Positions 10,646 to 10,984 of a stretch of 11,220 nt of DNA are shown in pieces. Origin of the DNA: Escherichia coli (GTDB lineage Bacteria; Pseudomonadota; Gammaproteobacteria; Enterobacterales; Enterobacteriaceae); assembly GCF_003334765.1 (NCBI RefSeq), contig NZ_QOWT01000057.1. The stretch is one strand, 5' to 3'. How positions within the stretch are numbered: the first letter of the stretch is position 1; the number at the start of each line of letters is the position of its first letter. A model generated the notes under the pieces. That model made no database searches, was not told the origin of the DNA, and worked only from the letters and a program-made list of their open reading frames with translations. The translations under genes were made by a program, and so were the position numbers.

Positions 10646-10984
10646 TCAGGCCTCCGCCGGTAGCCGTAATCGATTTGCCGAGCCGCAGACGGCGATTTTG
10701 CTTCTGACCACCTCTTTCATGGTGTCCATGCCAACCCGCATGTAAAAGCACGGATCGTTGCTCTGCTGATTTTCAGCAAACCAAGCTTTGATGGCGTCAG
10801 AGAAGGCGATCTTCAACTCGGTTGCAACGTTGACTTTGCAGACGCCTGGCCCAATGGTGCGACGAACATACTCATCCGGCACATCGCTCGCCCCATGCAG
10901 CACAAAGCGGGCAAAACAAACGGCATAAATTCCATTTGTTTTGCCCGCTTTGTACTGCCTCACCATTTCTGTCAGATGTTTCAC
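10646..10984 (-). pseudogene. kbaZ'-'kbaY in-frame fusion remnant (tagatose-bisphosphate aldolase subunits of the aga/GalNAc locus)
   Basis: Minus-strand frame reads [23 protein letters not shown] (GatZ/KbaZ-family N-terminus, likely GTG start at 10984 preceded by GGAGAGG) joined directly to [79 protein letters not shown] (class II aldolase KbaY/GatY C-terminal about 85 aa). The ORF-track start at 11050 is an in-frame read-through of the 5' leader. Confidence 0.6.
10902..10953. repeat. 19-bp perfect inverted repeat with 14-nt spacer, at the kbaZ/kbaY junction
   Basis: ACAAAGCGGGCAAAACAAA (10902-10920) and TTTGTTTTGCCCGCTTTGT (10935-10953) are exact reverse complements, verified base by base. 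Confidence 0.85.

Follow-up and report, generated by a model that had tools for sequence, protein, structure and literature searches.

How does the beginning of one gene come to be fused in frame to the end of another, with a perfect palindrome lying across the seam, and does the product still do anything? These questions are raised by an 11,220-nucleotide stretch of Escherichia coli DNA (contig NZ_QOWT01000057.1 of assembly GCF_003334765.1; hereafter the window). In the window's listing of open reading frames (ORFs), a minus-strand ORF of 134 aa at 10646..11050 joins the N-terminus of KbaZ to the C-terminus of KbaY, two proteins of the aga cluster for N-acetylgalactosamine (GalNAc) and galactosamine. 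The likely answer is that this kbaZ'-'kbaY fusion is a non-functional pseudogene in a mosaic module on a horizontally acquired island, in which the two genes were joined first and a template switch made the palindrome later. The mechanisms are all known, namely a microhomology join, a quasi-palindrome template switch, and the capture and mosaicism of chromosomal DNA in islands, and they do not amount to a new kind of system. What is new is an unusually well-resolved instance whose two halves come from different genera.

Anatomy of the junction

The true KbaZ start is the GTG at 10984, with AGGAAAG just upstream, identical in K-12. From this start the fused product is 112 aa long (10646-10984, minus strand) and joins 23 codons of KbaZ to 85 codons of KbaY in a single frame, close to the about 25 and about 85 codons given in the initial annotation of the window. 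The fusion retains the KbaZ N-terminus from its native start, together with the native upstream control, and the KbaY C-terminus through its native stop and the downstream spacer. Only two differences separate kbaZ' from K-12 kbaZ in 10915-10984 (AGA>AGG and CAC>TAC); in Enterobacter kbaZ, at least 10 positions of the same stretch differ. Taken together with the agaR-kbaZ intergenic region (10915-11220), kbaZ' is 97.7% identical to K-12. The other half, 'kbaY, matches the class II aldolase model of Pfam (PF01116, 277 positions) at 201-277 only. An independent gene family for the 134-aa ORF is rejected, since nothing but this partial C-terminal aldolase domain matches; one source names other members of the ORF's cluster, and every one is this same remnant in E. 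coli.

The two perfect 19-bp arms of the inverted repeat (Table 1) are separated by a 14-nt spacer and lie on the kbaZ/kbaY junction, at the coordinates first assigned to them. Once mismatches are allowed, the repeat search returns 30-nt arms at 90% complementarity. Among 100 first-order Markov versions of the window, searched for perfect inverted repeats with a spacer of 3-30, the longest measured 7-12 bp, well short of the 19 bp observed. As single-stranded DNA, the window hairpin has a folding energy of -30.7 kcal/mol (z = -9.8). The junction and its inverted repeat are confirmed as real rather than an artefact, because the same junction is found in 313 independent complete E. coli genomes.

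The parental genes can be compared with the window base by base. The E. coli kbaZ coding strand reads ...CAG CAC AAA GCG GGC AAA ACA AAT GGA ATT TAT GCC GTT TGT TCC GCA CAT CCG CTG GTG CTG GAA..., the window coding strand reads ...CAG TAC AAA GCG GGC AAA ACA AAT GGA ATT TAT GCC GTT TGT TTT GCC CGC TTT GTG CTG CAT GGG..., and the Enterobacter kbaY coding strand reads ...GTG CCG CTG GTG CTG CAC GG.... A 12-nt identity, CCGCTGGTGCTG, is present in both E. coli kbaZ and Enterobacter kbaY and encodes PLVL in the same frame in each; therefore, the product of a join at this site is necessarily in frame. The initial annotation had placed PLVL at both breakpoints, and the motif is indeed there: intact KbaZ proteins carry CSAHP[L/Y/R]VL, and PLVLHGAS occurs in every KbaY examined. 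The short identity at both parental breakpoints, with one copy kept at the junction, is the pattern of a microhomology-mediated deletion.

Directly beside this join, 14 nt of kbaZ (CAGCGGATGTGCGG) are swapped for the 11 nt at 10904-10914, which turns SAHPL into FARF. The inserted 11 nt follow the E. coli sequence (AAAGCGGGCAA), where an Enterobacter template would give AAACGGGGGAA. Of the more than 25 intact kbaZ genes examined, all carry TCCGCACATCC.CTGGT and encode the CSAHP motif given above; FARF and the perfect palindrome occur in none of them. FARF is thereby rejected as a natural KbaZ variant.

Alignment to K-12, suggested from the outset as a check, reveals that intact kbaZ already contains a quasi-palindrome. 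The native gene forms an imperfect hairpin (-17.1 kcal/mol, z = -3.05) in which an outer 6-bp pair (CAGCAC/GTGCTG) and an inner 6-bp pair (AACAAA/TTTGTT) enclose an 11/14-nt bubble. Copying of the arm between the outer and inner blocks yields exactly the window sequence, and the mutant bases form one cluster that is the exact complement of the opposite arm and makes the repeat perfect. E. coli kbaZ and Enterobacter-type kbaY both contain the hexamer GTGCTG, which is also the complement of kbaZ codons 10-11. The window junction is the signature of a quasipalindrome-associated template switch, a mutational process that PMC7202029 presents as established in E. coli.

Two ancestries and the ancestral operon

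Sliding 200-nt identities show where the two halves come from. From rsmI' through hyp (the gene of a 629-aa protein), malY, malX and 'kbaY, the best matches are Enterobacter sequences at 82-92%; from window position 10915 to 18 nt short of the agaR stop, the DNA is 96-98% identical to E. coli. The junction is the boundary between E. coli-type and Enterobacter-type DNA. At the DNA level, 'kbaY is 85-87% identical to kbaY of Enterobacter soli and Enterobacter quasihormaechei, versus 74-77% to E. coli kbaY. Its tail, RLRLPAEA, resembles the Enterobacter RLLLPAEA, whereas the E. coli protein ends in RISA. With about 75% DNA identity and a different C-terminus, E. coli's own kbaY is rejected as the source of 'kbaY. 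The common origin first assumed for the two halves is thus contradicted, kbaZ' being E. coli-type and 'kbaY Enterobacter-type.

The ancestral gene order comes from a synteny survey in which one genome per species was searched with the island MalX protein and the aga proteins were then mapped onto the returned loci. A recurrent chromosomal order emerges: garD, agaR (divergent), kbaZ-agaV-agaW-agaE-agaF-agaA-agaS-kbaY-malX-malY-hyp629, then rsmI (convergent). The full order from garD to rsmI is present in Enterobacter cloacae, Enterobacter soli, Enterobacter hormaechei, Enterobacter quasihormaechei and one Enterobacter sp. isolate, and the undeleted arrangement kbaZ-agaVWEF-agaA-agaS-kbaY-malX-malY appears in more than 15 species loci. 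The kbaY-malX-malY core is common to Kluyvera, Yokenella, a Citrobacter, Morganella and a cryptic Escherichia, with variation further downstream.

The module that holds the fusion keeps the Enterobacter order minus the interval from kbaZ codon ~29 to kbaY codon ~205, and the spacer from the kbaY stop to the malX start, including its hairpin, is colinear with Enterobacter. Because exactly the kbaZ-kbaY interior is missing while the spacer remains colinear, the deletion of about 7 kb is real. In Enterobacter soli, the homologous Val codons of kbaZ and kbaY lie 6,975 bp apart. The deletion took out agaVWEFA-agaS and the PS promoter, which is described for the aga cluster in PMC3668189. Loss of the intervening genes, as claimed in the initial annotation, therefore stands when measured against the Enterobacter order, but the locus that lost them is an island copy and not the strain's own aga cluster. 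The further claim of a downstream loss of agaBCDI fails: these genes were never downstream of this kbaY, since the ancestral order places malX-malY-hyp-rsmI directly after it, and the window keeps that order colinearly.

The island setting is seen in E. coli E400634, whose locus is 100% identical to the window over 10560-11220. There the fusion lies inside a genomic island that runs from an integrase, a phosphoethanolamine-transferase fragment, the insertion sequence (IS) IS3, MarR, and pieces of IS100 and IS66, through an rsmI 3' fragment, the 629-aa protein, a MalY/PatB-like gene, a malX-like gene, 'kbaY, kbaZ', an intact agaR and a decayed garD fragment, to more IS66, acnB, citGXF and yeeU/cbtA. 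The chromosome of the same strain carries a complete 13-gene native aga locus at 627.5-639 kb, about 207 kb from the fusion. Because of this island context and the intact native locus in the same genome, the fusion is a second, partial, island-borne copy and no lesion of the strain's own aga pathway. It is not the native aga/gam locus, which would extend from garD-prlF-yhaV to rsmI as the sole aga copy. Strain 20-16 has the same module from rsmI' to garD' with different neighbours. The module spans about 8 kb in the order rsmI'-hyp629-malY-malX-'kbaY/kbaZ'-agaR-garD', and the rsmI' and garD' fragments at its ends show that the whole block is a captured piece of chromosome.

A survey of strains, also called for early on, finds the junction with the perfected repeat (the corrected junction) in 312-313 of 5,426 complete E. 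coli genomes (~6%). The corrected junction has a single origin and has since spread. An undeleted island copy occurs in none of the 5,426 genomes, and the same 312 genomes are returned whether the query spans the junction or covers malX-'kbaY only. Over the 63-nt junction query, most records (291 of 314) are a single base away from the window and represent the longer, major form; the remaining 23 have the window allele. At position 10954 the window has A; strain 20-16 and a further locus (L004) have G, which extends the perfect palindrome to 24 bp and lowers the hairpin energy to -34.2 kcal/mol. The A of the window (His11>Tyr) is a minor, derived allele.

Order of events and competing explanations

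The order of the two changes is indicated by one further allele. A search of 5.8 billion proteins gave 87 candidates, among which P0042 is the only uncorrected fusion. It is encoded on a 56-kb metagenome contig (L036; ENA ERZ27287602) that carries agaR, the fusion, malX, malY, hyp and rsmI', with 99.1% identity to the window across malX-hyp. Its plain junction reads ...GTTTGTTCCGCACATCCGCTGGTGCTGCATGGGGCG (AVCSAHPLVLHGAS), and the junction DNA is ...GTTTGT TCCGCACAT CCGCTGGTGCTG CATGGGGCG.... Homology to E. coli kbaZ runs to position 947 and homology to Enterobacter kbaY begins at 936, an overlap of 12 nt. The arm is uncorrected (TCCGCACATCCGCTG) and corresponds to the pre-mutation allele in the same context; the k-mers that mark the two states are GCACATCCGCTGGTGCTGCATGGGGCG for the plain junction and GTTTGTTTTGCCCGCTTTGTGCTGCATGG for the corrected one.

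When rooted on Enterobacter, the comparison makes L036 the sister of all four corrected alleles included: the corrected ones have 5 derived sites in common, L036 has 22 of its own, and 0 sites conflict. Because L036 shares the deletion but shows a plain 12-nt junction without a palindrome, the palindrome most likely arose after the deletion and join, on the stem of the corrected clade. The proposed connection with template switching survives insofar as the palindrome is the product of the switch. As the mediator of the deletion it probably has to be given up, given that L036 has the same deletion without it and no parental kbaZ carries the perfect form. A hairpin-stimulated deletion involves a pre-existing palindrome that bounds the deletion or is spanned by it; here the lost 7 kb lie outside the repeat.

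In the favoured two-step model, the module would be a captured garD-to-rsmI region of an Enterobacter-like organism. In the first step, about 7.0 kb between kbaZ codon ~29 and kbaY codon ~205 would have been lost through a join at the 12-nt CCGCTGGTGCTG. Because the join links E. coli-type agaR-kbaZ' to Enterobacter-type 'kbaY, either the host's own aga locus would have been copied in an illegitimate or repair-type join, or a deletion would have been followed by gene conversion up to the homology boundary. In the second step, as comparison of the alleles suggests, DNA synthesis would have switched template within the natural kbaZ quasi-palindrome and copied the opposite arm, so that 14 nt became 11 nt (net -3 nt), SAHPL became FARF and a perfect 24-bp palindrome formed. 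Finally, a C>T change at 10954 in the window lineage would have cut the perfect stretch to 19 bp.

Several points weigh against this model. Only one metagenome contig is known to carry the plain-junction allele, which occurs in none of the 5,426 complete E. coli genomes and in none of the Joint Genome Institute (JGI) metagenome contigs. The polarity follows from outgroup logic, and two steps are needed under either order, including a one-step origin followed by reversion in L036. The donor species has not been found, the best DNA matches reaching only ~86-87%, and garD' fits neither an E. coli-type nor an Enterobacter-type source cleanly. The E. coli-type patch may derive from the direct chimeric join or from later gene conversion.

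The best surviving alternative, though improbable, is a one-step origin. Within E. coli-type kbaZ, a 3' end that had stalled or broken would have folded back on the inner 6-bp repeat, copied 17 nt of itself and been captured at GTGCTG of Enterobacter-type kbaY. Deletion, chimeric join and palindrome would then have arisen together, as in fold-back priming or microhomology-mediated break-induced replication (MMBIR), and the plain junction of L036 would be a later reversion through gene conversion from the resident native kbaZ. The outer end of the palindrome is exactly the GTGCTG common to kbaZ, kbaY and the complement of kbaZ codons 10-11, and the ancestry seam falls at the junction; the inserted copy is E. 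coli-type, which dates it to the arrival of E. coli-type kbaZ' or later, and the number of events equals that of the two-step model. Such a reversion, however, needs a conversion tract that ends inside 6-12 nt. Substitutions private to L036 also occur near the junction, at position 881, and all along the intergenic region, whose identity to K-12 is only 94%; these speak against a recent conversion by a standard native allele. By comparison, the two-step route combines two common types of event, a plain 12-nt microhomology join and a quasi-palindrome correction.

A more far-reaching proposal is slightly less probable still. It treats the junction as the fossil of one inter-species repair, in which a break in the island's Enterobacter-type aga operon would have been mended by copying agaR-kbaZ' from the host aga locus, with capture at the 12-nt microhomology in the foreign kbaY. 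This would have removed PS and placed malX-malY-hyp629 behind the AgaR-repressed PZ, and the later 24-bp hairpin would tune the transcript. If true, an acquired sugar-uptake module would have been naturally rewired so that the host GalNAc regulator controls it.

What remains of the coding sequence bears on whether the fusion itself does anything. The remnant is probably a pseudogene under relaxed constraint from which no aldolase is made, because only the last 77 of 277 aldolase model positions are left, nonsynonymous divergence (dN) is raised, broken alleles exist, and the Prokaryotic Genome Annotation Pipeline (PGAP) annotates the pieces as pseudogenes. The dN of 'kbaY to Enterobacter orthologues is 0.051 versus 0.011-0.017 among Enterobacter species, about four-fold higher, with similar synonymous divergence (dS). 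Frameshifted or truncated alleles circulate (P0049, P0050 and P0069), and L036 has a Trp-to-stop change. At most, the sequence leaves room for a putative residual role as a translated leader between the AgaR-controlled PZ and malX-malY-hyp.

That the fusion or its hairpin is functional and under selection is accordingly a doubtful proposition, well behind the preceding ones. The 24-bp stem-loop would stabilise or attenuate the malX-malY-hyp mRNA, or the ORF would keep ribosomes on the leader against Rho-dependent polarity. In favour are the high stability of the stem, an in-frame ORF with an intact PZ/AgaR control region directly upstream, and the fact that the corrected allele is the only one in the 313 complete genomes. 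Yet the in-frame state is no evidence of selection, because the same-frame PLVL microhomology and the -3-nt geometry force it, and hitch-hiking with the island can account for the prevalence. The raised dN and the broken alleles in circulation also speak against function, and the window allele itself breaks the longer palindrome. No T-run follows the palindrome stem and no terminator-like site is called there, which eliminates an intrinsic terminator role for the hairpin. The probable pseudogene reading is retained.

The view of the initial annotation, a hairpin-mediated deletion scar in the strain's own aga locus with loss of agaBCDI, agrees with the E. coli-type N-terminal part and control region and with PLVL in both parent genes, but is counted as refuted and keeps hardly any probability, given the intact native locus beside an island-borne fusion, the Enterobacter-type 'kbaY including its C-terminus, the ancestral position of malX-malY-hyp after kbaY, and a palindrome-free allele of the same deletion.

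Known parallels and the surrounding module

Microhomology-mediated deletion and homology-facilitated illegitimate recombination occur in bacteria. The join resembles such events in its 12-nt identity between otherwise non-homologous positions and in having one flank homologous to the resident DNA and the other foreign. For the switch, the closest parallels are the thyA and lacZ quasipalindrome hotspots of the Lovett laboratory. Mutations of this kind form during DNA synthesis; 3' exonucleases restrain them and replication blocks stimulate them, with ExoI/ExoVII and the replication strand among their genetic dependencies. In PMC7202029 and PMC6357072, an imperfect repeat is likewise made perfect by a simultaneous cluster complementary to the other arm, and the switch points are short, perfectly paired blocks. 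Unlike those reporter hotspots, the kbaZ'-'kbaY case is natural, fixed and located in a pseudogene. Its correction is also large (an 11/14-nt bubble, net -3 nt) and falls right on an older deletion junction. Short-range template switching that makes or perfects hairpins (PMC9435742; PMC8794818; inverted repeats of Proteobacteria in PMC5941160) similarly leaves an inverted copy of neighbouring sequence as a mutation cluster and creates a long perfect stem. Those reports are surveys, mostly eukaryotic or intergenic, whereas this is one bacterial case with both parents and the pre-switch allele.

The 2.3-kb aga deletion of K-12 (PMC3668189) is another natural deletion in the aga/gam cluster that leaves truncated genes. 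It falls within the native locus (agaW'-agaA') and renders K-12 Aga- Gam-, whereas the window deletion lies in a second, xenologous island copy beside an intact native locus. The module shares gene order, orientation and the kbaY-malX spacer with the Enterobacter garD-agaR-kbaZ...kbaY-malX-malY-hyp-rsmI locus; it differs in lacking agaVWEFA-agaS, in being cut at rsmI and garD, in its E. coli-type agaR-kbaZ' patch and in residing in E. coli islands.

Both parents and the pre-switch and post-switch alleles align at single-base resolution, which makes the locus a clean natural record of two successive textbook processes. The case also matters for annotation: what hundreds of E. coli genomes list as a "class II aldolase" ORF is a pseudogene. 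Additionally, a second agaR and a second PZ region that face a foreign malX-malY operon are relevant to studies of aga regulation and of islands. The coordinates of the features are collected in Table 1.

Table 1. Features of the junction and the surrounding module in the window
Feature	Coordinates	Strand	Description
kbaZ' remnant	10915..10984	-	GTG start + 23 codons + 1 nt, E. coli-type
'kbaY remnant	10646..10903	-	Last 85 codons + stop, Enterobacter-type class II tagatose-bisphosphate aldolase, VLHGAS...RLRLPAEA*
Inverted-repeat arm 1	10902..10920		ACAAAGCGGGCAAAACAAA; 10897-10920 (24 bp) in the major allele
Inverted-repeat arm 2	10935..10953		TTTGTTTTGCCCGCTTTGT; native kbaZ codons 11-17
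Templated insertion, 11 nt	10904..10914		AAAGCGGGCAA, exact inverted copy of 10941-10951 (kbaZ codons 12-15)
CAGCAC (coding GTGCTG, Val-Leu of PLVL)	10898..10903	-	Residue of the 12-nt kbaZ/kbaY microhomology and outer palindrome switch point
Divergent agaR-kbaZ control region	10985..11220		PR/PZ and AgaR-binding repeats; E. coli-type, 97-98% identical to K-12
malX-family phosphotransferase system (PTS) IIBC gene	8962..10532	-	Directly downstream of the remnant; NCBIfam TIGR02004; Enterobacter-type
MalY/PatB-family C-S lyase gene	7775..8950	-	Same module
629-aa protein gene	5872..7761	-	Last intact module gene; adjoins rsmI in Enterobacter
rsmI 3' fragment	5544..5801	+	Far end of the captured chromosomal segment

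The malX product is 96% identical at the protein level to its Enterobacter orthologue, which occupies the same place after kbaY. In the window its gene has a frameshift: a T7 run at 10519-10525 (A7 in the coding strand, codons 3-5) replaces the T8 of the E400634 locus, the frame is shifted after codon 4, and the long ORF resumes at ATG 10467 with 501 aa instead of 523. The shorter run may be real, as a phase-type or pseudogene change, or may come from a homopolymer sequencing error. The malX-like gene is not equated with the malX pathogenicity-island (PAI) marker of CFT073, an extraintestinal pathogenic (ExPEC) E. coli strain. The RPAi primer sequences have no match in the window, and the whole pheV island of CFT073 (3.395-3.535 Mb) is without the module. 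One sampled O25b:H4-ST131 genome, H32, gives only the native kbaZ match.

Between the remnant stop and the malX start, at ~10553-10590, lies the spacer hairpin (GAAGGCGCGTCC...AGCGCCTTC), which has the same place and sequence in Enterobacter species. It has no T-run behind it and could be a regulatory or processing element for malX.

The 629-aa protein has no NCBIfam match. In Enterobacter, a counterpart with 90-92% protein identity has kept its place between malY and rsmI, and one RefSeq record labels the 629-aa protein "enterotoxin". The rsmI fragment is ~85% identical to E. coli rsmI and 84-90% to those of Kluyvera and Enterobacter, and PGAP annotates it in strain 20-16 as a 16S rRNA methyltransferase fragment. 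At the E400634 locus (L001 coordinates) it lies at 6964-7245, and the module block there sits between split halves of the IS66 tnpC gene (6197-6984 and 15818-16404). The same locus has IS100 (istA/istB) at 3781-5736, an insertion that the window lacks (4296-4298). Apart from IS100, only a few substitutions and one single-base indel distinguish the two over ~10.7 kb.

Just past the window end starts the island agaR (12674-13498 in L001), which is intact and encodes 274 aa, including a C-terminal extension of 5 aa. Its identity is 99.0% to K-12 agaR but only 95.6% to the native agaR of its own host; the native alleles of K-12 and E400634 are themselves 95.6% identical. Because the island agaR differs from the host's native one, carriers possess two PZ/PR regions and a pair of agaR genes that belong to different allele classes. 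Further along, the garD fragment (13552-14717 in L001) matches K-12 garD at 90% over 737 nt and, after a gap of ~200 nt, at 80%, and matches Enterobacter and Kluyvera at 76-82% throughout.

Two observations come from other loci and assemblies. In Escherichia sp. MOD1-EC7003, a member of a cryptic lineage, malX-malY stands between kbaY and agaBCD in an otherwise E. coli-like locus; malXY after kbaY is suggested to be the older arrangement, lost in E. coli proper. Lastly, P0035 and P0079, two KbaY-derived predicted proteins from E. coli records at NCBI, continue after ...KIAFAG with TMQHQRNIHHFTNF, which reads the EIREVVDVPLVLHG region from the reverse strand. This points either to an inverted duplication at the PLVL region of the native kbaY in those assemblies or to an assembly artefact of the fold-back type there.

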